Below, piece after piece: positions 5,854 to 35,584 of a DNA stretch of 35,584 nucleotides. The notes under the pieces were generated by a model. The model had not been told where the DNA came from, searched no databases, and was given only the letters and a program-made list of their open reading frames with translations. The position numbers were made by a program, and so were the translations under genes. The stretch spans positions 1 to 35,584 of the forward strand of contig JACRGU010000127.1 in assembly GCA_016212245.1 (NCBI GenBank), in the 5' to 3' direction. Position 1 is the stretch's first letter. Each line of letters begins with the position of its first letter. The DNA is from Nitrospirota bacterium (lineage in GTDB: Bacteria > Nitrospirota > Thermodesulfovibrionia > Thermodesulfovibrionales > SM23-35).

Positions 5854-6879
5854 ATGAATAGAGCTATAAAATTTTTCTCTGTATGTTTTTTACTTATTAT
5901 CCTGCCAATCTTAGGATGTACCTATCTTAAGACCTCAAGACCTATCCTTCCTATAAAAGAATACGAAAAGATGATTGTGGGGAGATTTGACGCTGAGTAT
6001 GTTGGCACTGACAGGTGTCTTTCAGCCTGTCATGCCCATGATAGGATAAGGGCATCTTTTGATGTAAGCACAATGGGGGTTCAGCTCTCGAGAGAGTCAG
6101 GCCTTCCGCTTGTAAACTGCGAATCCTGCCATGGCCCTGGAAGCTTAGCAATAAAGGATATAACCTTAGAAAGGGTAAGGGCTGATGAGGAGAAAGGAAT
6201 AAAGACGACATGCGACTACAAGACCCTTATTGATATCAAAAACCTGCCTGCCCCTGCCCAATCACTTATCTGTCTGAAATGCCATACAGGTAATGCAACC
6301 TTTAATCTTCATAACTGGAATGCAGGTATCCATGCTATAAATGATGTCTCATGTCTCGATTGTCATGATATCTGTAAAACCTTTAAAGCTGGTAGTCCTG
6401 ACCTGAAGGTGAGGCCGAGGGATACGGCTGAGATGTGCTATAAATGCCATACCCATGCGAGGGCTGAATTTATGCTTCCGAGCCATCATCCTGTTCCTGA
6501 GAGAAAGGTCTTCTGCACAAGCTGTCATGACCCCCATGATGGTGGTAGTGAAAAACCATTCAGGAGGTCAACTATCAAGGATACATGCACATACTGCCAT
6601 GTAGAAAAGGCAGGGCCATTCGTCTTTGAACATGGCGGTTTAACAGATGACTGTATGGCATGCCACAGCAGCCATGGTTCTCCTAATAATAACCTTCTTA
6701 ATGTCAGGATGCCATTTCTATGTCTCCAGTGTCACGAGGGTCATGTTGTCAGCAGGGATGGGACTCCAACTATAGCGGAATCAAAGAGGGCCTTTTACAC
6801 AAGATGTACAGACTGTCATCCAACAATTCATGGAACAGATATTCCATCAGCAGGTGGAAGAGGAAGTTTTACACAATGA
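5854..6879 (+). CDS. Decahaem c-type cytochrome, lipoprotein signal (MtrA/DmsE/PioA-like)
   Basis: It has nine CxxCH motifs plus one CxxxCH (CLSACH) in 341 aa. The lipobox is LPILG-C. GPFVFEHGG...CMACHSSHGS and the C-terminal CTDCHPTIHGTD are typical of periplasmic multihaem wires. Confidence 0.85.
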   Translation: MNRAIKFFSVCFLLIILPILGCTYLKTSRPILPIKEYEKMIVGRFDAEYVGTDRCLSACHAHDRIRASFDVSTMGVQLSRESGLPLVNCESCHGPGSLAIKDITLERVRADEEKGIKTTCDYKTLIDIKNLPAPAQSLICLKCHTGNATFNLHNWNAGIHAINDVSCLDCHDICKTFKAGSPDLKVRPRDTAEMCYKCHTHARAEFMLPSHHPVPERKVFCTSCHDPHDGGSEKPFRRSTIKDTCTYCHVEKAGPFVFEHGGLTDDCMACHSSHGSPNNNLLNVRMPFLCLQCHEGHVVSRDGTPTIAESKRAFYTRCTDCHPTIHGTDIPSAGGRGSFTQ

Positions 6880-7129: not shown

Positions 7130-7918
7130 ATGTTTCTTTTTCTACTGTATCCTCTTACTGTTTACTGTTCACTGTTTCCTGCCTATGCTGAAGAGCCAGA
7201 CGAAGAGTATGAGGTAGAAGAAGAGATTACGCTCGAATATGTTTATGAGGAAGAGGTCCCGAAGATTAAACCCCAATTTAAAGTCAAATTAGGCTATGGG
7301 ATTGTGGATGAAAGTGGTTCTGGAAGGGCTGGCGAATTCGATTATCTCCATTCCTCTCTCACAGGTGGCCTCAAGCTTACAGCGTACCCTCTTCCACACA
7401 GGATCGAGCTTGAGTATGAAGGTCTGAATATAAAGGACTTTTATTCTGAGATAGCTTATGCATACAAAGACATATTCCTTTCGAGGCTTATATCCACAGG
7501 ACTCTATCATAACCTCGACCATTACTATTACCCGACCCCGTATGGTGTAAATTTAGAGTCCCCACCACGTGTCCTGATGTATAACGACAGAGACTCTGAG
7601 GACAAATATGGTGTAAGGGTGGATATGCATTATCTATTCTTGAGATTCAAGATACCTGACTTCCCCCTGCATCTGTATTTAGATGGGAAGCTTTATGAGA
7701 AGGAAGGGACAAAACAGCAGAGGTTTCTCAGCGGTTATCATGGAAACATAGAGATGGTCTCAAGGACAAGAAGTATAGATTTTAGAACAGAAGAGGTTAC
7801 TATAGGTACTAATAGCCACCTCGGACCAATAGAGATTGACCTCAGCCATTATGAAAGAAACTTTAATGTTAAAGGTGATAGGGTCCTCTATGACAACTTT
7901 CCTGCTACTGCGGGGTAG
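7130..7918 (+). CDS. Outer-membrane beta-barrel protein, N-terminal part (MtrB/PioB-like); probably one gene with 7836..9095
   Basis: The signal peptide is MFLFLLYPLTVYCSLFPAYA-EE, followed by alternating amphipathic strands. The ORF ends at TAG 7916 just after a GGGG run, and the barrel-like sequence continues in the next frame. Confidence 0.7.
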   Translation: MFLFLLYPLTVYCSLFPAYAEEPDEEYEVEEEITLEYVYEEEVPKIKPQFKVKLGYGIVDESGSGRAGEFDYLHSSLTGGLKLTAYPLPHRIELEYEGLNIKDFYSEIAYAYKDIFLSRLISTGLYHNLDHYYYPTPYGVNLESPPRVLMYNDRDSEDKYGVRVDMHYLFLRFKIPDFPLHLYLDGKLYEKEGTKQQRFLSGYHGNIEMVSRTRSIDFRTEEVTIGTNSHLGPIEIDLSHYERNFNVKGDRVLYDNFPATAG

Positions 7919-9095
7919 GGCTGCAGATATATACCCGCACAATCTTATACCAGAGATAAGGGAATCGTCTAACACTATTAAGATTCATACATCATATACA
8001 GGACAGATAGTTGCTTCTGCAACACTTAATAGGGGTGAGAGAAGGAATAAGGACAGCAGAGCTGAGGTTGATTATCTAAATGGTGTAGGAGAGCTTACAT
8101 GGATGCCTCAACACAATATTGCGGTATTTCTTAAATACAGGCATTTTGACCATGATGTAGATAATCCGGATACGGTTTCGATCACGGGAACGGGGTTAGG
8201 TAATACATATACATATGCAGTCAGACCATCTCTATCTACAGAAAGGGATGTGATTTCTACTGCCTTGAGGTATCGGCCAGTGAATAACCTTACCTTGCGG
8301 GCTGAATATTCATGGGAGGAGATTGACAGGAAGAATAGTGATAAATGGAACCTTCCAGGTAAGACAAATAAGAACACATTCACCCTTTCTGCAACAACAA
8401 GACCTCTTAAAAGATTGAATCTGAAGGCGTTCTATACACATAAGGAGATTGACAATCCAGCATACAACTATGAGCCAGATATCTCTAACCAGGCGAAGCT
8501 GACCGCCACATGGAATACCACTCCTGAACTTACATTCTTTGGGACTTACAGCCTTACAAGAGACAGGAGAGGTGATCTCGGCAATCAACTCTCTGAGGGT
8601 GAAAGAAGTGCAGATAGGGATATGATAATGGGAAATATGACATATATGATTTTGAAAGACCTGTCCTTTACAGCAGGCTATGCATATTTTAGAAATGAGG
8701 TAAAGCAGGATATAAAATATAGGCAACTTGTGGGTGGGGCACTTGGTACCGCCCTCAATGACAGGGGAGTCCCTTACAAAGATACTATAGATAATTTTTA
8801 CATCGCTCTCAGTTATATAAAAAATAGATTCAATCTGAACGGGCATGTTAGCTATACCATTTCAGAGGGTAAATTCAGTCCTAACATCACTGAAGCCCTT
8901 CAACCTGCCTCTATAGCATTATTCTCTAAATTAAAGGTCTATGAAACCGAGACTTCTATATGGGGAGAGTATGAGGTTACAAAGGGTTGGTGGGTTGGAT
9001 TGAGATATGAATATAATAATTTCGATGATAAGATTGACAGCAGCTATGATAGTAGAGTCCATATGACCTTTTTAACTATCTCGAAGAGGTGGTGA
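7836..9095 (+). CDS. Outer-membrane beta-barrel protein, C-terminal part (MtrB/PioB-like); real coding probably starts near 7917 as a continuation of 7130..7918
   Basis: Tyr/Arg/Asn-rich strand-turn pattern (YSLTRDRRGD, FTAGYAYFRNEV) is visible. The C-terminal aromatic residue (...TFLTISKRW) is typical of BAM-dependent OMPs. It lies directly downstream of a decahaem cytochrome. Confidence 0.7.
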   Translation: MTSAIMKETLMLKVIGSSMTTFLLLRGRAADIYPHNLIPEIRESSNTIKIHTSYTGQIVASATLNRGERRNKDSRAEVDYLNGVGELTWMPQHNIAVFLKYRHFDHDVDNPDTVSITGTGLGNTYTYAVRPSLSTERDVISTALRYRPVNNLTLRAEYSWEEIDRKNSDKWNLPGKTNKNTFTLSATTRPLKRLNLKAFYTHKEIDNPAYNYEPDISNQAKLTATWNTTPELTFFGTYSLTRDRRGDLGNQLSEGERSADRDMIMGNMTYMILKDLSFTAGYAYFRNEVKQDIKYRQLVGGALGTALNDRGVPYKDTIDNFYIALSYIKNRFNLNGHVSYTISEGKFSPNITEALQPASIALFSKLKVYETETSIWGEYEVTKGWWVGLRYEYNNFDDKIDSSYDSRVHMTFLTISKRW

Positions 9096-9180
9096 TGGAC
9101 AAAAAAAGTTCAAAGTTGAAAGTTCAAAGTTTAAAGTTAAAAGTTATTTTTTATTTTTTACTTCTCACTTCTCACTTGTA
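9096..9180. repeat. Period-7 repeat array pair (AGTTCAA/AGTTGAA/AGTTTAA/AGTTAAA ... TTCTCAC x2)
   Basis: The sequence is gttcaaagttgaaagttcaaagtttaaagttaaaagtt, then a T-rich loop, then ttacttctcacttctcactt. The two halves are imperfect reverse complements. Confidence 0.85.
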
Positions 9181-19354: not shown

Positions 19355-19436
19355 GTAAATCAAAAATTAGAAATCAAAAAGCAAAATTACAATTCAAAAT
19401 TCAAAAATAAAATTCCTTAATTTTTATTTTTAATCT

Positions 19437-29270: not shown

Positions 29271-30650
29271 ATGATATATTCTATGGATACAATCCTCATA
29301 GTAGAAGACAAAGAATCAATGGCAGAGATGCTAAAGGAGACCATCGAGTCTGAAGGTTACAGGGTTCTCCTTGCGAGGGACGGTATGGAGGGGATTAAGC
29401 ACCTTAAGGAAAGCAGAACAGACCTTGTCCTGACTGACTTAAGACTGCCTAAAAAAGACGGTATGGAAGTGCTGAAGGCAGCAAAAGAAGAAAGCCAGCT
29501 CACTCCTGTAATAGTCATGACAGCCTATGGTTCTATTGAGACAGCTGTGGCAGCTATGAAAGAAGGTGCTTTTGACTTTATTACAAAACCTTTTGATACA
29601 GACCACCTTCTTGTGCTCATAAGGAGAGCGATTGAGACACAGAGGGTTTTTACAGAGAACATCCTGCTGAAAGAGGAATTTGTATCAAAGCTCGGATTTC
29701 CGAGGATTATCGGAAGGAGCGAAAAGATTACAGATGTTGCGCAGAAGGTGCAGAAGGTTGCGACTACTAGGACAACAGTGCTCCTGATTGGTGAAAGCGG
29801 TACAGGGAAAGAACTCTTTGCAAGGGCCATACACAATCTGAGCCCCAGGCGGCATTACCCATTCGTGCCGATTAACTGTGCAGCAATACCGAGGGAGCTC
29901 CTTGAATCAGAACTCTTTGGTCATGAAAAGGGCTCGTTTACAGGGGCTGATGTAAAAAAACTCGGAAAGTTTGAACTTGCTGATAAGGGGACAATATTTC
30001 TGGATGAAATAGGAACGATGGACCTGTCGCTACAGGCCAAGCTTCTCCGGGCGATTGAGGAAGGCGAGATAGAAAGGGTCGGAGGTGTAAAAAGTATTAA
30101 TATTGATGTAAGGATTGTTGCTTCAAGCAATAAAGATCTTGAAAAGGCTGTTGAGGATAATAAGTTCAGGGAAGACCTTTTTTACAGACTTAATGTCTTC
30201 CCGATAATGATACCACCTTTGAGAGAGCGAAGAGAAGATATTCCTTTACTCGTAGAATTCTTCATAAATAAATACTGTCTTGAGATAAAGACCTCTGTAA
30301 AGACTATTTCAAGAGAGGCACTCGACATGCTTATGAGTTATCCGTGGAAGGGTAATGTGAGAGAGCTTGAGAATGCTATAGAGCGAGCAATTATCCTTTG
30401 CGATGGGAATGTGATTATGCCGGAACATATTGTACTGAGTCAGCAACCTGTCCTCGAATCCACGATGCGGTCCTTGCTGATGGAAGGACCCCTTGAGGAT
30501 GTGGCAAAAGAGGCAACGAGGATAGCAGAGACCCAGCGCATCAGTAAGGCACTTAAAGAGACAAAAGGCAACAAGAGCAGGGCAGCAGATATTCTCCAGG
30601 TGAGCTACAAAACACTGCTCACAAAGATTAAAGATTACAGGATAGAGTAA
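29271..30650 (+). CDS. Sigma54-dependent response regulator (REC + AAA+ + Fis-type HTH, NtrC family)
   Basis: The REC domain has ILIVEDK...DLVLTDLRLP. The AAA+ domain has GESGTGKE, GSFTGA and ...FREDLFYRLNV. The C-terminal HTH is KSRAADILQVSYKTLLTKIK. The start is ATG 29271 or 29283. Confidence 0.9.
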   Translation: MIYSMDTILIVEDKESMAEMLKETIESEGYRVLLARDGMEGIKHLKESRTDLVLTDLRLPKKDGMEVLKAAKEESQLTPVIVMTAYGSIETAVAAMKEGAFDFITKPFDTDHLLVLIRRAIETQRVFTENILLKEEFVSKLGFPRIIGRSEKITDVAQKVQKVATTRTTVLLIGESGTGKELFARAIHNLSPRRHYPFVPINCAAIPRELLESELFGHEKGSFTGADVKKLGKFELADKGTIFLDEIGTMDLSLQAKLLRAIEEGEIERVGGVKSINIDVRIVASSNKDLEKAVEDNKFREDLFYRLNVFPIMIPPLRERREDIPLLVEFFINKYCLEIKTSVKTISREALDMLMSYPWKGNVRELENAIERAIILCDGNVIMPEHIVLSQQPVLESTMRSLLMEGPLEDVAKEATRIAETQRISKALKETKGNKSRAADILQVSYKTLLTKIKDYRIE

Positions 30651-30702
30651 GTGGGGTTACAAATTTTAATTTTAGCTGGTAATATAATTTAGTAAGTCAT
30701 AA

Positions 30703-30769
30703 GTCAAAAAAGTATTTTTATCTAATGACTATTGACTAATGACTGCTGACTTTATGACTGCCGAAGGCA
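30703..30769. repeat. About 60-nt repeat (gtcaaaa..gtattttt..atgactaatgactgctgactttatgactgccgaaggca), copy 1, abutting tRNA-Ser(GCU)
   Basis: It is near-identical to 32451-32506, and copy 1 carries one extra heptamer unit. Confidence 0.85.
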
Positions 30770-30772
30770 AAA

Positions 30773-30865
30773 GGAGAGGTGGCCGAGATGGTCGAAGGCA
30801 GCCGCCTGCTAAGCGGTTGTGGGGGTAAAATCTCACCCAGGGTTCGAATCCCTGCCTCTCCGCCA
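30773..30865 (+). tRNA. tRNA-Ser (anticodon GCU), CCA encoded
   Basis: The cloverleaf folds by hand: acceptor ggagagg/cctctcc, anticodon loop ct-GCT-aa, long variable arm, T arm cagggttcgaatccctg, discriminator G. Confidence 0.92.
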
Positions 30866-30921
30866 TTAAAGACAGTGACAAGTAACAAGTGATGAGTGAC
30901 AAGTTTCGTTAGGTTTACTAA

Positions 30922-30978
30922 GTTTATTGAGTTTACACGGTTCATTGAGTTATTAAAACCCAAGAGACTCAAAAAACG
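30922..30978. repeat. Palindromic-ended element, copy 2, interior inverted relative to copy 1
   Basis: 30922-30972 is the reverse complement (50/51) of 2524-2574, while the upstream 17-mer taaagacagtgacaagt (30867-30883 vs 2472-2488) is in direct orientation. Confidence 0.85.
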
Positions 30979-31029
30979 GTGTCAACTCGTTACTTGTAAC
31001 TTGTTACTAAAAATTAAGGAGGTTGAACC

Positions 31030-31587
31030 ATGAATAAAAAGGTAGCAGCAGTTGTATGTAGCCTTGCCCTGACTGTTTCAGTGAGTGCATGTAAGAAGAG
31101 GGAAACTCAGCCACCTGCTCCACAGGTACCAGGTCCGATGATGCAGGGTCCAATATCACCAGAGGCACAGCAGACAGTTCCAGGACATGGTGTGACAGTA
31201 CCAAAGGGTGAAACACAGGTAGTAGTGCCTGATTCGGTTAAGGGCAGATGGAGTGCAGTAAAGATTGTTGTTGAGGATAGAGGGACAAAAAAGACTCAGG
31301 AATATAAGATAAGTCTGCACAGCGACTTTGTAATCCCTAATTCTAACCTTAAGGTTACAGTAGGAGAGTTTCTTCCTGATTTTAAGATGGATGGACTTAC
31401 TCTAACTTCAGTATCCAATCAGCCTAATAACCCAGCTGTTGGAATAAGGGTTTTTGAAGGCGATAAACAGATATTCCCTGCCCCTGAAAAACAGTGGGGG
31501 TGGTTGTTTTCAAAGATGCCTTCGGTACACCCATTTGAGCATCCAAAGTATGGTATTACATTAAAGGAAGGTGTAAAGAAGGGATAA
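31030..31587 (+). CDS. Lipoprotein of unknown function (possibly DUF2155-like)
   Basis: The lipobox is TVSVSA-C, SD AAGGAGG is present, and a Pro/Gln-rich linker precedes a beta-rich domain ending ...[13 protein letters not shown]. Confidence 0.55.
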
Positions 31588-31592
31588 GGGTT

Positions 31593-31669
31593 GCGCCCAT
31601 AGCTCAGATGGATAGAGCGACGGACTACGAATCCGCAGGTCGGGGGTTCGAATCCTCCTGGGCGCGCCA
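31593..31669 (+). tRNA. tRNA-Arg (anticodon ACG), CCA encoded
   Basis: Acceptor gcgccca/tgggcgc, D arm gctcagatggatagagc, anticodon loop ct-ACG-aa and T arm gggggttcgaatcctcc. It closely resembles E. coli tRNA-Arg(ACG). Confidence 0.92.
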
Positions 31670-31671
31670 AA

Positions 31672-31697
31672 GCAAATTTTGCTTTTGCAAAATTTGC
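31672..31697 (+). terminator. Perfect 11-bp hairpin after tRNA-Arg
   Basis: gcaaattttgc - tttt - gcaaaatttgc. No clear T tract follows. Confidence 0.4.
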
Positions 31698-31784
31698 AGT
31701 TGTTAGTACTTGAATTTTTTTGTTTACTATTCACTAATCACTAATCACTTTTCACTATCTACCGTCGTTAAATAGGATTCAATA

Positions 31785-32243
31785 GTGATCAGTAAAGACA
31801 AAGATATTTATTTTATGAGGCTGGCACTCAAAGAGGCCAGCCTCGCTTTTATTGAAGGCGAGGTCCCTGTGGGTGTGGTACTTGTAAAGGACGGTAAGGT
31901 TATTGCAAAGGCACATAACCACAGGGAGACTTTAAAAGACCCAACAGGCCATGCTGAAATCCTTGTACTCAGGTCTGGTGCAAATGAAAATGATAGTTGG
32001 CGACTAACAGATGCAACGCTTTATGTGACAAAAGAGCCATGCATTATGTGCGCAGGTGCAATGGTGAATGCGAGACTTGGCAGACTTGTTTATGGATGCA
32101 AGGATGAAAAGGCTGGGGCAGTTGATAGTCTTTATAACATACTTTCGGATAAAAGACTTAACCATCAGATAGAGGTTGTATCAGGTATTCTTGAGGACGA
32201 ATGCGCCTTGATATTGAAAAGGTTTTTTAAAGAGAGAAGATAA
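31785..32243 (+). CDS. tadA: tRNA-specific adenosine-34 deaminase
   Basis: The CDA-fold zinc motifs are GHAEILVLR and PCIMCAGA. Size is 152 aa. The start is GTG 31785 (or ATG 31815). Confidence 0.9.
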   Translation: MISKDKDIYFMRLALKEASLAFIEGEVPVGVVLVKDGKVIAKAHNHRETLKDPTGHAEILVLRSGANENDSWRLTDATLYVTKEPCIMCAGAMVNARLGRLVYGCKDEKAGAVDSLYNILSDKRLNHQIEVVSGILEDECALILKRFFKERR

Positions 32244-32309
32244 AGTTTTAATTTCTTTTCTTGTTGTAAACTAAAAACTGTTCACTATTCACTGATAACT
32301 GTATTTATT

Positions 32310-32399
32310 GGAGAGGTGCCAGAGTGGTTGAATGGGGCGGTCTCGAAAACCGTTGTGGGGGTAACTCCACCCAGGGTTCGAATCCCTGCCTCTCCGCCA
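32310..32399 (+). tRNA. tRNA-Ser (anticodon CGA), CCA encoded
   Basis: It has the same acceptor and T arms as the GCU isoacceptor, with anticodon loop ct-CGA-aa and a long variable arm. Confidence 0.92.
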
Positions 32400-32450
32400 T
32401 TGAGAAGTTAGAAGTTAAAAATGAAAAGTTAAAAGTTTAAATTAAAAGTG

Positions 32451-32506
32451 GTCAAAAGTATTTTTCTGATGACTAATGACTGCTGACTTTATGACTGCCG
32501 AAGGCA
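32451..32506. repeat. About 60-nt repeat, copy 2, abutting the 3' end of the minus-strand tRNA
   Basis: See 30703-30769. The block ctaatgactgctgactttatgactgccgaaggca is identical in both copies. Confidence 0.85.
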
Positions 32507-32508
32507 GG

Positions 32509-32604
32509 TGGAGAGGGGCAGTGAGAATCGAACTCACCAGGGCATATTATTGTACCCCAACACTGGTTTTGCAGACCAGGTGAGACACCAGTCCCTTACC
32601 CCTC
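32509..32604 (-). tRNA. Non-canonical 96-nt tRNA: selenocysteine-tRNA-like architecture (8-bp acceptor + 5-bp T stem, long variable arm) with Cys anticodon GCA and U73, CCA encoded
   Basis: Hand fold of the minus strand: acceptor 1-8 (gaggggta) pairs with 85-92 (tgcccctc). D stem 10-14/19-23 has a 4-nt loop tggt. The anticodon stem is 26-30/38-42 with loop ct-GCA-aa. The variable arm is 43-67 (5-bp stem). The T arm is gtgag-ttcgatt-ctcac (68-84) and directly abuts the acceptor strand. The discriminator is T, followed by CCA. Confidence 0.8.
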
Positions 32605-32606
32605 AA

Positions 32607-32984
32607 TTATTTTGAATCTCCGGTTAATTTATCTATCACCTTCTCTTCGTATTCTGAAAAATCTTCGAGGTTAAAGGGTTTTTTGCGTATTATATTGAGT
32701 TTCAAAAGTTTGAAATTTAGCTCTCTGAGTTTCTTAAGTCTTTCTTTATCATCATCAATTGTATTCATCAATGCGCACATATTTATTATCTCGTTTCTCA
32801 GCTCAAGCTCAGGTGGAGTACAGCCTGCATTTTTCAAAATCCTGTAAGCCATTCTCAGGTCCTCAGGAATCCATGTCTCATCCTCAAAATTGATGGGCCT
32901 TCCTTTTCCTTCAAGGTTTTCAAACTCACCATTTTCCATGGCCTCTATAATTCGTCTTTCAGCAATCCTATCAAAGATATTCAT
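32607..32984 (-). CDS. DUF1992 (DnaJ-C28-like) domain protein
   Basis: AE..I.EA...G.F.NL.GKG.P...ED..W.PEDLRMAYRILKNAG..P is the characteristic DUF1992 N-terminal motif. Confidence 0.7.
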   Translation of the reverse strand: MNIFDRIAERRIIEAMENGEFENLEGKGRPINFEDETWIPEDLRMAYRILKNAGCTPPELELRNEIINMCALMNTIDDDKERLKKLRELNFKLLKLNIIRKKPFNLEDFSEYEEKVIDKLTGDSK

Positions 32985-33021
32985 TACAGCACCTCACAAA
33001 CTATAAATATCATAGCAAAAA

Positions 33022-33822
33022 TCACCGTTTTCTTCTAAGGATTAAGGAGATAAAGAAAAGCAGGGTGGCTGTCAGGACAATACTTCCTCCGGGCGCAATA
33101 TCAAATTCATAAGACAGGAAAAGCCCTGTAATTGTAGAAAACACTGCAGCGCCGCATGAGATTGCAATCATAGAAGTCAGACTTTTAGCAAATAGCTGTG
33201 CGGTCGCCCCTGGTATGACGAGCAGGGCTGAGATAAGGATGATACCCACAACCTTCATCGCGATAACAATGGATATTGAAAGGACAAGCAGGAAAAGGAT
33301 ATTAATGGCCCTCACTGAGATACCGCTTACTTGTGCTATCTCTTCATTATATGTTGTCAGAAATATCTCTTTTAAAAAGAGCAGGATGACCCCGATTACT
33401 GATATTGTTGTAAGCAGTGTAATTAGGACTTCTCTGTCAGTAATGGCTAATATATTTCCGAAAAGATAACCAAAGAGGTCAACATTATATTCCCTGGAGA
33501 GACTTACGAGTATAATACCGAGTGCCCTCGAGCTCGCAAAAAATATTCCAATAGAGGCGTCTTCTGAAACCTTCCCCTTTCTGCTTACTACTTCAATCCC
33601 GAGTGCAACTGCGATAGAATAAATAGTTGCAGTAATGAGGGGATTTATACCGGTAAAAAACCCAATCGCCACTCCACCAAATGCTGCATGTGATATGCCA
33701 GCGCCTATGAAGGACATCTTACGCAGTACTACAAATACTGAGACCAGGCCTGATATCAGACTGACCATGATACCTACAAAAAAGGCCTTCTGCATGAATG
33801 CAGAGCTTAAGATTTCGATCAT
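33022..33822 (-). CDS. znuB: Metal (Zn/Mn) ABC transporter permease, ABC-3 family
   Basis: It is a polytopic membrane protein of about 8 TM segments with FMQKAF..G and ...GAGISHAAFGGVA.G patterns, sitting in an operon with the ATPase and the SBP. Confidence 0.8.
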   Translation of the reverse strand: MIEILSSAFMQKAFFVGIMVSLISGLVSVFVVLRKMSFIGAGISHAAFGGVAIGFFTGINPLITATIYSIAVALGIEVVSRKGKVSEDASIGIFFASSRALGIILVSLSREYNVDLFGYLFGNILAITDREVLITLLTTISVIGVILLFLKEIFLTTYNEEIAQVSGISVRAINILFLLVLSISIVIAMKVVGIILISALLVIPGATAQLFAKSLTSMIAISCGAAVFSTITGLFLSYEFDIAPGGSIVLTATLLFFISLILRRKR

Positions 33823-33833
33823 CTACCCCCCTC

Positions 33834-34619
33834 TCATTCCCTCCTCAGTCGCTCACACTTATCGCACATATCTGTGTGCATAAGGACGTCTACGTTTTTA
33901 CCGTAGAGACCTGTTAATACTCCTTCATTTAGAGCACCAAGCGGATTCCCATGGTAGTGAAATGTGTGATTCAGACATGCTATTTCATCCACATAGGTTG
34001 TTATAGCTCCAATATCATGCGAAGCCATTAGGACAGTAAGATTAAATCTCTTCTGTAGGCCTTTCAGAAGGTGGTAGAAATCTTCCTGTCCGACCACATC
34101 AATACCTGTACTGGGCTCATCGAGTATTAAAATCCTCGGTTCTGCGGCAAGTGCCCTGGCAATTGAAACCCTCTGCTGCTGTCCTCCCGAGAGTTGACCG
34201 TAAGGCACATCTTTAAGATCCGCCATCCCCATCATGGAAAGACATTCTACTGTTTTCTCTATGTCCTTTCCACGTGGCCATCTCAGCATGCCGACCTTCC
34301 CATACCTTCCCATCATAACCACATCTATTACCCTGACAGGAAAATTTGGCTCGATCTTTAAGGTTTGTGGTAGATAACCGAATATACCGCCAGTTCTTAA
34401 AATATCTTCAGGGGGTTTTCCAAAGATACTTACTTCTCCTGACGAAGGCTTTATGAGTCCGAGTATTACCCTCAGAAGTGTTGTTTTGCCACCTCCGTTC
34501 GGGCCTACAATACCTAAAAACTTTCCTTCATCCATGGAAAGGCTTATGTCTTTCAAGATATCTCTGCCGCTGAGGGCCACACTTAAGTTATTAATTTCGA
34601 TTGCCTTCATATCATGCAA
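33834..34619 (-). CDS. znuC: Metal (Zn/Mn) ABC transporter ATP-binding protein
   Basis: Walker A GPNGGGKTT, signature LSGGQQQRV, Walker B ILILDEP and H-loop SHD are present. The C-terminal tail contains CDKC. Confidence 0.85.
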   Translation of the reverse strand: MHDMKAIEINNLSVALSGRDILKDISLSMDEGKFLGIVGPNGGGKTTLLRVILGLIKPSSGEVSIFGKPPEDILRTGGIFGYLPQTLKIEPNFPVRVIDVVMMGRYGKVGMLRWPRGKDIEKTVECLSMMGMADLKDVPYGQLSGGQQQRVSIARALAAEPRILILDEPSTGIDVVGQEDFYHLLKGLQKRFNLTVLMASHDIGAITTYVDEIACLNHTFHYHGNPLGALNEGVLTGLYGKNVDVLMHTDMCDKCERLRRE

Positions 34620-34693
34620 AACAATTAAAAATTACTAATAAGTTCATAAGTAAGATGTCATCCCGTCATCTCTTTTTACTCTTAACTTTTAAC

Positions 34694-35584
34694 CTATTTC
34701 ATCACATTTTCCATAACTGAAATATTATATCTCATCATTTCTATGTACGTCTCTCTACCTTTCTGTCCGCCGATAGGGTCGAGGTATAAGACCTTTGCGC
34801 TGCTTTCCCTTGCTACAGCCTCAGCAATCTTAGGATTAAATTGAGGCTCGGCAAAGATAACCCTGTTTCCGATGCGATTGACTTCTTGAATAATCCTTGC
34901 AATATGTTTCGGACTCGGCTCTTTGCCTGGTGCTTCCTCAATAACACCAGCAACCTTGAGTCCGTATCTCTTTGAAAAATAATTCCATGCTGAATGAAAT
35001 GTAACATATTCTTTTATTGTAAAAGTCTTAACTTTTTCGGAGATCTCCTTATCGAGGTGTAGAAGCTTTTCTCTATATATAGATGCATTTTTTTTATAAA
35101 CCCCGGCATTGCTTGGGTCAGCCTCGATAAGTGTCTTTTCTATCTTTGTAACTATATCCCTTGCAATCAGAGGGTCAAGCCAAATGTGAGGATCGGCATA
35201 TGAGTCAAGTGATGAGTGTTGAGTGATGAGTGTTGAGTGATGAGAATGAACATCTCTTATCAATTGTATCCCAAATGATGAATCAACAACGATGAGCCTT
35301 TTACTTCCTGATGCCTTTATCATCTTTTCTGCCCAGAATTCAAGCCCAGCACCTATCTTAACGAATACCCTCGCCTCAGATAATTCTTTCATAACCTTAG
35401 GCGTTGGTTCATATGTATGCGGGCTTGCACCAGGAGGCAGGAGCAATTTTACATCAACACGCTCTTCTCCCACCTGTCTTACAAAGTCATATAAGGGGTA
35501 AATACTGACGATTACCTTCAGTTTCTGCCCTCCATAGAGTGAAGTAAAAAGTAAAAAGTGAAAGATGAAAAGTAAGATTATTGA
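34694..35584 (-). CDS. znuA: Metal (Zn/Mn) ABC transporter substrate-binding protein, TroA/ZnuA family; start codon lies beyond the window end
   Basis: The frame stays open upstream of the GTG at 35473 to the window edge (SIILLFIFHFLLFTSLYGGQKLKVIVSIYPLYDFVRQVGEERV...). That stretch is a signal peptide plus the conserved N-terminal strand. The PPGASPHTYEP and DPHIWLDP metal-ligand motifs are present, with a His-containing loop between them. Confidence 0.85.
   Translation of the reverse strand, partial: SIILLFIFHFLLFTSLYGGQKLKVIVSIYPLYDFVRQVGEERVDVKLLLPPGASPHTYEPTPKVMKELSEARVFVKIGAGLEFWAEKMIKASGSKRLIVVDSSFGIQLIRDVHSHHSTLITQHSSLDSYADPHIWLDPLIARDIVTKIEKTLIEADPSNAGVYKKNASIYREKLLHLDKEISEKVKTFTIKEYVTFHSAWNYFSKRYGLKVAGVIEEAPGKEPSPKHIARIIQEVNRIGNRVIFAEPQFNPKIAEAVARESSAKVLYLDPIGGQKGRETYIEMMRYNISVMENVMK

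Follow-up and report, generated by a model that had tools for sequence, protein, structure and literature searches.

A 96-nt tRNA gene on the minus strand of the window, by which we mean the whole 35,584-nucleotide stretch of Nitrospirota DNA analysed here, very probably belongs to the tRNAReC class, also known as selC* tRNACys. The 8/5 GCA type and the host phylum have both already been reported; what is particular to the window copy is its location, which illustrates that a tRNAReC gene may lie apart from the selenium loci. The selC* tRNACys genes were described as encoding tRNASec-like tRNAs that carry U73 and either GCA or UCA as anticodon, whose host genomes, including those of Thermodesulfovibrio and Nitrospirae, all carry a complete selABCD set, and whose secondary arrangement is conserved and particular to each phylum; in some delta-proteobacteria selB* and cysS* lie downstream of them (Mukai 2017, PMC5389517). 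They were renamed tRNAReC by Vargas-Rodriguez et al. (RNA Biol 2018), according to two later papers (PMC11415595, PMC13582414). A 2024 review by the same first author states that the tRNASec-like tRNACys(GCA) of Desulfotomaculum nigrificans reads UGA as Cys and is carried by SelB, with no interaction with EF-Tu (PMC11415595), and later reviews state that CysRS charges a Desulfotomaculum member. In the operational definition of a 2026 survey, a tRNAReC is 80 nt or longer, has UCA or GCA as anticodon and carries a discriminator U; the survey reports that GCA and UCA types both mediate UGA recoding with a downstream SECIS, and its authors regard the respective roles of tRNASec and tRNAReC as unclear (PMC13582414). 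The discriminator of tRNASec is G73, whereas U73 holds across the selC* class (PMC5389517, PMC13582414).

The original prediction, made from the sequence, had pointed to tRNASec-like tRNACys species from the Soll laboratory, one of them charged by CysRS and delivered by SelB. The former are the selC* tRNACys, later tRNAReC (PMC5389517), and the latter corresponds to the D. nigrificans tRNA with its SelB delivery to UGA (PMC11415595). The prediction had also called the class rare and poorly understood; rare it is, but no longer obscure, being named, operationally defined in genome surveys (PMC13582414) and known from Nitrospirae hosts since 2017. The window gene leaves the knowledge of the class unchanged. 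The tRNAReC species are among the few natural tRNAs that are built for a specialised elongation factor and read a non-matching codon.

ARAGORN called a tRNA-Cys (gca) on the minus strand at exactly 32509-32604, the coordinates that had been predicted. On the other hand, Rfam cmscan assigned 32513-32604 (-) to tRNA-Sec (RF01852; 55.4 bits, E = 9.9e-9, gathering score 47 bits), and the general tRNA model RF00005 took the other three tRNAs of the window, not this one. The minus-strand sequence of 32509-32604 is GAGGGGUAAGGGACUGGUGUCUCACCUGGUCUGCAAAACCAGUGUUGGGGUACAAUAAUAUGCCCUGGUGAGUUCGAUUCUCACUGCCCCUCUCCA, with the following parts.

32509-32604, minus strand: very probable tRNAReC / selC*-type tRNA-Cys gene, 96 nt including the encoded CCA (ARAGORN, Rfam, fold)
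32597-32604, minus strand: acceptor stem, 5' strand, nt 1-8, GAGGGGUA, pairing with nt 85-92
32513-32520, minus strand: acceptor stem, 3' strand, nt 85-92, UGCCCCUC, directly abutting the T stem
32582-32595, minus strand: D arm, 5-bp stem (nt 10-14/19-23) and 4-nt loop UGGU (sequence, RNAalifold)
32563-32579, minus strand: anticodon arm, 5-bp stem and 7-nt loop CUGCAAA (sequence, ARAGORN, RNAalifold)
32572-32570, minus strand: anticodon GCA, with A36-A37-A38 present in the loop
32538-32559, minus strand: long variable arm, nt 46-67, 22 nt, a 7-bp hairpin (fold)
32521-32537, minus strand: T arm, 5-bp stem (nt 68-72/80-84) and loop UUCGAUU (fold, covariation, RNAalifold)
32512, minus strand: discriminator U73, nt 93 (read in the sequence)
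32511-32509, minus strand: encoded CCA (read in the sequence)

The spacing from C61 to the discriminator is 12 nt, not 11, which gives an acceptor/T domain of 13 bp. The predicted CU-GCA-AA anticodon loop and U73 are both read in the sequence, in agreement with the Cys(gca) call of ARAGORN, and the predicted long variable arm folds as a 7-bp hairpin. For the D arm, a stem of 5-6 bp with a 4-nt loop had been proposed; five pairs and the loop UGGU were found, but not the sixth pair, whose position is an A9/A24 mismatch, although a sixth A-U pair is possible in some relatives. The window tRNA thus has all the sequence-level features of tRNAReC, namely a tRNASec-like body, a length of at least 80 nt, U73 and GCA.

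An 8-bp acceptor stem stacked on the 5-bp T stem, also proposed at the outset, is supported by the RNAfold centroid, by covariation and by RNAalifold. RNAfold gave an MFE of -39.4 kcal/mol (z = -3.18) with a centroid of 8 + 5 bp, from which the MFE structure differs solely by 67:85 in place of 8:85, i.e. a 7 + 6 arrangement. The canonical 7/5 cloverleaf had been judged inaccessible, and indeed the 7/5 register breaks the T stem and shifts the TPsiC loop, and no better 7/5 fold was found. Covariation was examined over 32 distinct Nitrospirota-type homologues among the matches listed from the family survey described below, in a gapless construct joining the 5'-terminal 8 nt to the 3'-terminal 34 nt, which was used instead of a full-length MAFFT alignment of 38 sequences, where indels had accumulated at the 5' end and put the acceptor strand out of register. 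Over these homologues, 99.3% of the cells of the 8/5 structure are standard pairs and 7 of the 13 pairs are changed on both sides, values matched by none of 500 shuffles; sliding the partner by 1-3 columns lowered the pairing to 53-70%. All eight acceptor pairs are retained, six of them with double changes, and the pair 8:85 that distinguishes the centroid is AU in 30 homologues, GC in 2 and broken in none. The T-stem pair 71:81 covaries (GC, AU, UG, GU, UA). In the 7/6 alternative, by comparison, the pair 67:85 is broken in 6 of the 32 and doubly changed in none. RNAalifold with 17 sequences of near-equal length gave independent support for 8 + 5, with an 8-bp acceptor, a 5-bp T stem, a 5-bp anticodon stem and a 4-bp D stem (11:22 to 14:19, with covariation at 12:21 and 13:20). 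Because the homologues carry these compensatory changes, a chance origin of the structure is ruled out. The anticodon arm GGUCUGCAAAACC is invariant across 38 Nitrospirota-type sequences.

The window tRNA may be set beside several known kinds of tRNA. It resembles the D. nigrificans tRNAReC in its tRNASec-like body, GCA anticodon and U73, and Bacillota relatives (e.g. L013, L014, L063, L065, L078, L106) share the 12-nt spacing and the 13-bp domain; it differs from it in phylum and primary sequence, the Nitrospirota type having the invariant anticodon arm and the GAGGGGUA acceptor. The selC* tRNACys of delta-proteobacteria (Desulfomonile, Desulfobacterales, Syntrophobacterales; PMC5389517) share U73, GCA or UCA, an 8-bp acceptor, the long variable arm and, as a class, linkage to selenium genes, but their 8/4 domain comprises 12 bp and has A51a bulged out (11-nt spacing, 28 listed loci), unlike the 8/5, 13-bp domain of the window tRNA, and they are followed by a dedicated selB* and sometimes cysS*, neither of which adjoins the window tRNA. 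With bacterial tRNASec (selC, RF01852) it has in common the 8/5 helix, the 4-nt D loop, the long variable arm, A36-A37-A38 and a score above the Rfam gathering score; the discriminator is U and not G, however, the anticodon GCA and not UCA, the D stem 5 bp and not 6 (some relatives can form the sixth pair), and Cys would be expected directly from CysRS rather than from Ser converted by SelA. The tRNASec(GCA) of Aeromonas salmonicida likewise combines a selenocysteine-tRNA body with a cysteine anticodon, but keeps Ser/Sec identity and inserts Sec at UGC (Mukai et al. 2016 via PMC11415595), whereas the window tRNA with U73 would have Cys identity and be expected to insert Cys at Sec codons. The allo-tRNAs (8/4, 9/3; Mukai et al. 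2017), which were found with the same tRNASec covariance model, also have a long variable arm and a long acceptor stem; they differ in their 12-bp domain, use of EF-Tu, mostly Ser identity and many anticodons. Finally, the canonical tRNACys is a 7/5 cloverleaf with a variable loop of 4-5 nt, in contrast to the 22-nt variable arm, the 12-nt spacing and the best Rfam family, tRNA-Sec, of the window tRNA.

The surroundings of the gene are as had been predicted, the tRNA starting 2 nt after the stop codon of a gene of the former DUF1992 family at the tail of a znuACB-like operon.

32607-32984, minus strand: DJC28_CD gene (PF09350, formerly DUF1992; YhdN-like; Pfam 85 bits; NCBIfam PRK10203)
33022-33822, minus strand: znuB (Pfam ABC-3, ABC_tran and ZnuA hits over the znuB, znuC and znuA genes)
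33834-34619, minus strand: znuC, metal-uptake ABC operon gene
34694-35473, minus strand: znuA, metal-uptake ABC operon gene
32400-32508, no strand: 109-nt spacer between the tRNA and the convergent tRNA-Ser(CGA), with period-7 repeats

The znuACB genes (33022-35473, -) lie upstream of the DJC28_CD gene on the same strand as the tRNA. The opposite strand near the tRNA carries, as ARAGORN found, the two predicted tRNA-Ser genes, tRNA-Ser(CGA) and tRNA-Ser(GCU), and additionally a tRNA-Arg(ACG). A scan for promoters and intrinsic terminators at the tRNA gave chance-level matches only, none of them convincing; a single -10-like site, separated from the mature 5' end by 2 nt, is unable to serve the tRNA. 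Co-transcription with the upstream gene is therefore the simplest reading, and the DJC28_CD gene is the probable partner.

The window contains lpxC, sigma-54 regulators and a DmsE/MtrB-type cytochrome-porin pair, a content in keeping with an uncultured Nitrospirota bacterium, and none of selA, selB, selC, selD, yedE, yedF or cysS within its 35.6 kb; ARAGORN found no canonical tRNA-Cys within it either. In-frame UGA recoding candidates had been envisaged, and a search of in-frame TGA between long open frames gave no credible selenoprotein candidate in the window, where no ORF is broken by an in-frame UGA. Megablast of 30000-35584 against plasmids returned no match. Two ORFs at 7130-7918 and 7836-9095 (+) match the NCBIfam 'GSU2204 family CXXCH-containing (seleno)protein' with 35 and 94 bits, against a cut-off of 350, and a selenoprotein reading of them was rejected; they lie in different frames, which indicates a frameshift and not a UGA, and the second (7836-9095) also matches MtrB/PioB. 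Directly following a DmsE-family decahaem cytochrome gene (5854-6879), they are an MtrB/PioB-like outer-membrane barrel gene split over overlapping frames by a frameshift or an assembly error.

For the family survey, one genome per GTDB species was scanned with a pattern (CTGCAAA, 28-42 nt, GTTCGAWTC, 11-12 nt, TCCA), which gave at least 120 loci. Among the 120 matches listed, at least 84 were called by ARAGORN as long tRNA-Cys (gca) genes, whose U-CCA end is required by the search pattern, and many matches are Nitrospirota with the same acceptor sequence. Anchoring at the 3' end with at least 7 of 8 acceptor pairs retained 92 loci and the window among the matches listed, a few of which (e.g. 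L011, L066, L077) resemble chance or unrelated matches. The C61-discriminator spacing among the matches listed is 12 nt in 65 (13 bp, as in the window) and 11 nt in 28, mostly of the delta-proteobacterial 8/4 type. ORFs within 3.5 kb of the tRNA in the 92 listed loci were clustered and named by NCBIfam, with these recurrent neighbours.

Immediately downstream, same strand: selB (TIGR00475, 357-390 bits), 29 of 92 listed loci (8 Nitrospirota)
Upstream: selenium-metabolism LysR regulator (LysR_Sec_metab, NF040786, 315 bits), 18 of 92 listed loci
Nearby: yedF, 12 of 92 listed loci
Nearby: yedE, 7 of 92 listed loci
Nearby: double-cubane-cluster reductase, 18 of 92 listed loci
Nearby: activase of the double-cubane reductase, 13 of 92 listed loci
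Nearby: DVU_1551-family NTP transferase, 6 of 92 listed loci

At least one of these seven families is present at 62 of the 92 listed loci overall and at 26 of the 37 Nitrospirota loci, but not at the window locus. Nitrospirota homologues share the acceptor and anticodon arms of the window tRNA, and in related loci selB, LysR_Sec_metab, yedF and yedE adjoin the tRNA. The recurrence of selenium genes ties the family to selenium utilisation by genomic association, though the window copy is not so tied, and these neighbours (selB, the selenium-associated LysR regulator, yedF, yedE and the double-cubane reductases) are testable leads on when the tRNA is used. A full-length selB begins 14-160 nt downstream on the same strand at L007, L022, L025, L029, L031, L064, L088 and many delta-proteobacterial loci. 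Genes for double-cubane-cluster anaerobic reductases (NF040772) and an ATP-dependent activase recur at L007, L009, L016, L032, L057, L069, L074 and others.

Whether the window gene is under selection may be judged from its nearest relative among the matches listed, locus L034 of Nitrospirota bacterium MAG042. The gene order there is identical (znuA-znuC-znuB-DJC28-tRNA, tRNA-Ser(CGA), tadA, a hypothetical gene, tRNA-Arg, tRNA-Ser(GCU), sigma-54 regulator), the junction of DJC28 and tRNA is the same, and the proteins encoded at the locus are 83-96% identical. Fifteen of 96 positions distinguish the two tRNAs, 13 of them within stems, with fully compensated pairs at 12:21, 49:64 and 71:81 and five transitions between G-U and Watson-Crick pairs, and 30 of 31 helix pairs are intact in each. 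This divergence with the pairs kept indicates that the tRNA gene is under selection and is not decaying. Beyond L034 the linkage to the operon is not conserved, since none of the best 50 of 80 metagenome loci with DJC28 homologues (47-81% identity) has the tRNA downstream. At L150 (5765-5875) and L152 (1843-1952), a convergent tRNA-Ser(CGA) follows the DJC28 gene after about 19 nt, with neither tRNAReC gene nor spacer, and L144 (2918-3013) has the same DJC28/tRNA-Ser(CGA) junction at a contig end. The absence of tRNA and spacer at these junctions points to an insertion common only to the window and L034, and the tRNA with its 109-nt spacer is thus a recent lineage-specific insertion after the znuACB-DJC28 operon, away from selenium genes.

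Such an insertion might also have left a decaying relic or a non-translational RNA of mobile origin with no decoding role in the lineage, an outcome that the original prediction had set against its own reading and that we regard as very unlikely. It would fit the presence of tRNA and spacer only in the window and L034 but not at the syntenic DJC28/tRNA-Ser(CGA) junctions of metagenome relatives, the failure to find a convincing promoter or terminator of its own, and the lack of selenium genes nearby in the window. On the other hand, compensatory changes and G-U transitions make up the overwhelming share of the 15 differences from L034, all but one of the 31 helix pairs stand, no damage is seen in the anticodon loop, the T loop, U73 or the CCA, and the Rfam score is well over the threshold. 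With the gene taken as a selected tRNAReC, its place behind the operon leaves a slim chance that a recoding tRNA has left the selenium loci occupied by its relatives and that its level is set by Zn/Mn rather than selenium status; if so, a shortage of metal would be linked to SelB-dependent replacement of Sec by Cys, or the tRNA would become available for a use other than UGA recoding. An unusual regulation of the window copy therefore has a small chance, which comes from its location.

In the proposed mechanism, the window tRNA would be transcribed either together with the upstream DJC28 gene or from a start inside it, and be released by RNase P and by processing of its 3' end. Through U73 and its GCA anticodon it would be a substrate of cysteinyl-tRNA synthetase, as expected from the identity rules of CysRS and from what experiments have shown for other members. 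The 8-bp acceptor and 13-bp helix would keep it off EF-Tu and bring it onto SelB, as reviews describe for the Desulfotomaculum member, and SECIS-bound SelB would then carry the Cys-tRNA to the UGA of a selenoprotein mRNA, where the G34-A mismatch would be tolerated. Insertion of Cys when selenocysteinyl-tRNA is scarce may be a safeguard for selenoprotein synthesis. We take charging, elongation-factor discrimination and UGA decoding from the literature on other members, and the full mechanism (CysRS charging, SelB delivery, Cys at UGA) has a somewhat better than even chance of operating in the window organism. The split annotation (Cys by ARAGORN, Sec by Rfam) suggests that UGA of selenoprotein genes in this organism may be read as Cys as well as Sec. 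Against the mechanism, the tRNA sits in a metal-uptake operon and not in a selenium locus, and the 35.6-kb window has no sign of selenocysteine use.

The long variable arm is also the main identity element of SerRS, which counts against the Cys reading. SerRS might charge the tRNA through this arm and SelA convert the product, so that Sec would be inserted at UGC, as with the A. salmonicida tRNASec-GCA, or at UGA, as with tRNAReU. The Rfam tRNA-Sec score and the tRNASec-like D arm with its 4-nt loop, besides the variable arm, agree with such a Ser/Sec acceptor; moreover, U73 allo-tRNAs are considered Ser acceptors (PMC5389517), and a natural tRNASec with a GCA anticodon exists (PMC11415595). 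We nevertheless give it little credence, because all the homologues have U73, in place of the G73 of tRNASec (in part a consequence of the search pattern), as does the whole class in the literature, because the window tRNA has A2:U71 and G3:C70 where both tRNA-Ser genes of the window have G2:C71 and A3:U70, and because the D stem has 5 bp with an A/A mismatch, not 6 bp. A Cys-charged tRNA might alternatively be an ordinary elongator, an odd tRNACys isoacceptor that EF-Tu delivers to UGU/UGC and possibly the main tRNACys of the genome. Its GCA anticodon is cognate for UGC/UGU, 12-bp 8/4 and 9/3 allo-tRNAs are used by EF-Tu in E. coli (PMC5389517), and the window is without a canonical tRNA-Cys, though 35 kb is too short to expect one. 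This alternative is unlikely, since the helix has 13 bp, not 12, and a 13-bp length is what moves the binding of a tRNA away from EF-Tu and towards SelB (Baron and Bock 1991, via PMC7609411), the D. nigrificans member is reported not to interact with EF-Tu (PMC11415595), and the homologues cluster with selB and selenium genes, which would be unexpected for a housekeeping tRNACys.

Several minor observations accompany these results. Intergenic period-7 tandem repeats (units e.g. AAAGTTC, AAGTTAA, ACTAATC) are present at 9105-9145, 19357-19415, 30722-30761, 31726-31757, 32401-32449 and 35542-35575, several of them directly flanking tRNA genes, and AGTCA also recurs every 7 nt just 3' of the 96-nt tRNA (~32470-32505). 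A tadA-like tRNA adenosine deaminase gene adjoins the tRNA-Arg(ACG), its expected substrate (window 31593-31669 and 31785-32243, + strand, for the pair), and the pairing is kept in L034. The metagenome-assembled genome VGWY01 has two different tRNAReC-like genes on two contigs (L007, L025), each followed by selB, which may reflect either a genuine duplication or a bin of mixed origin.

Long tRNAReC-like genes with GCA and U73 also occur in metagenome-assembled genomes labelled Chloroflexota, Actinomycetota (Solincola, Thermoleophilia, Coriobacteriia) and Acidobacteriota (L008, L041, L045, L058, L082, L091, L092, L109, L112, L117); none of these phyla is named in the text of the 2017 description (PMC5389517). 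In a scan of viral contigs, judged without the acceptor/T spacing, no obvious tRNAReC-like gene was seen. The IMG/VR contigs matching the same pattern (L202-L221) carry phage tRNA clusters with 89-93-nt GCA/U73 tRNAs that combine a long variable arm with a D arm of the canonical class-II kind. These long-arm tRNAs, some of which adjoin a normal 74-77-nt tRNA-Cys, are a different phenomenon from tRNAReC.
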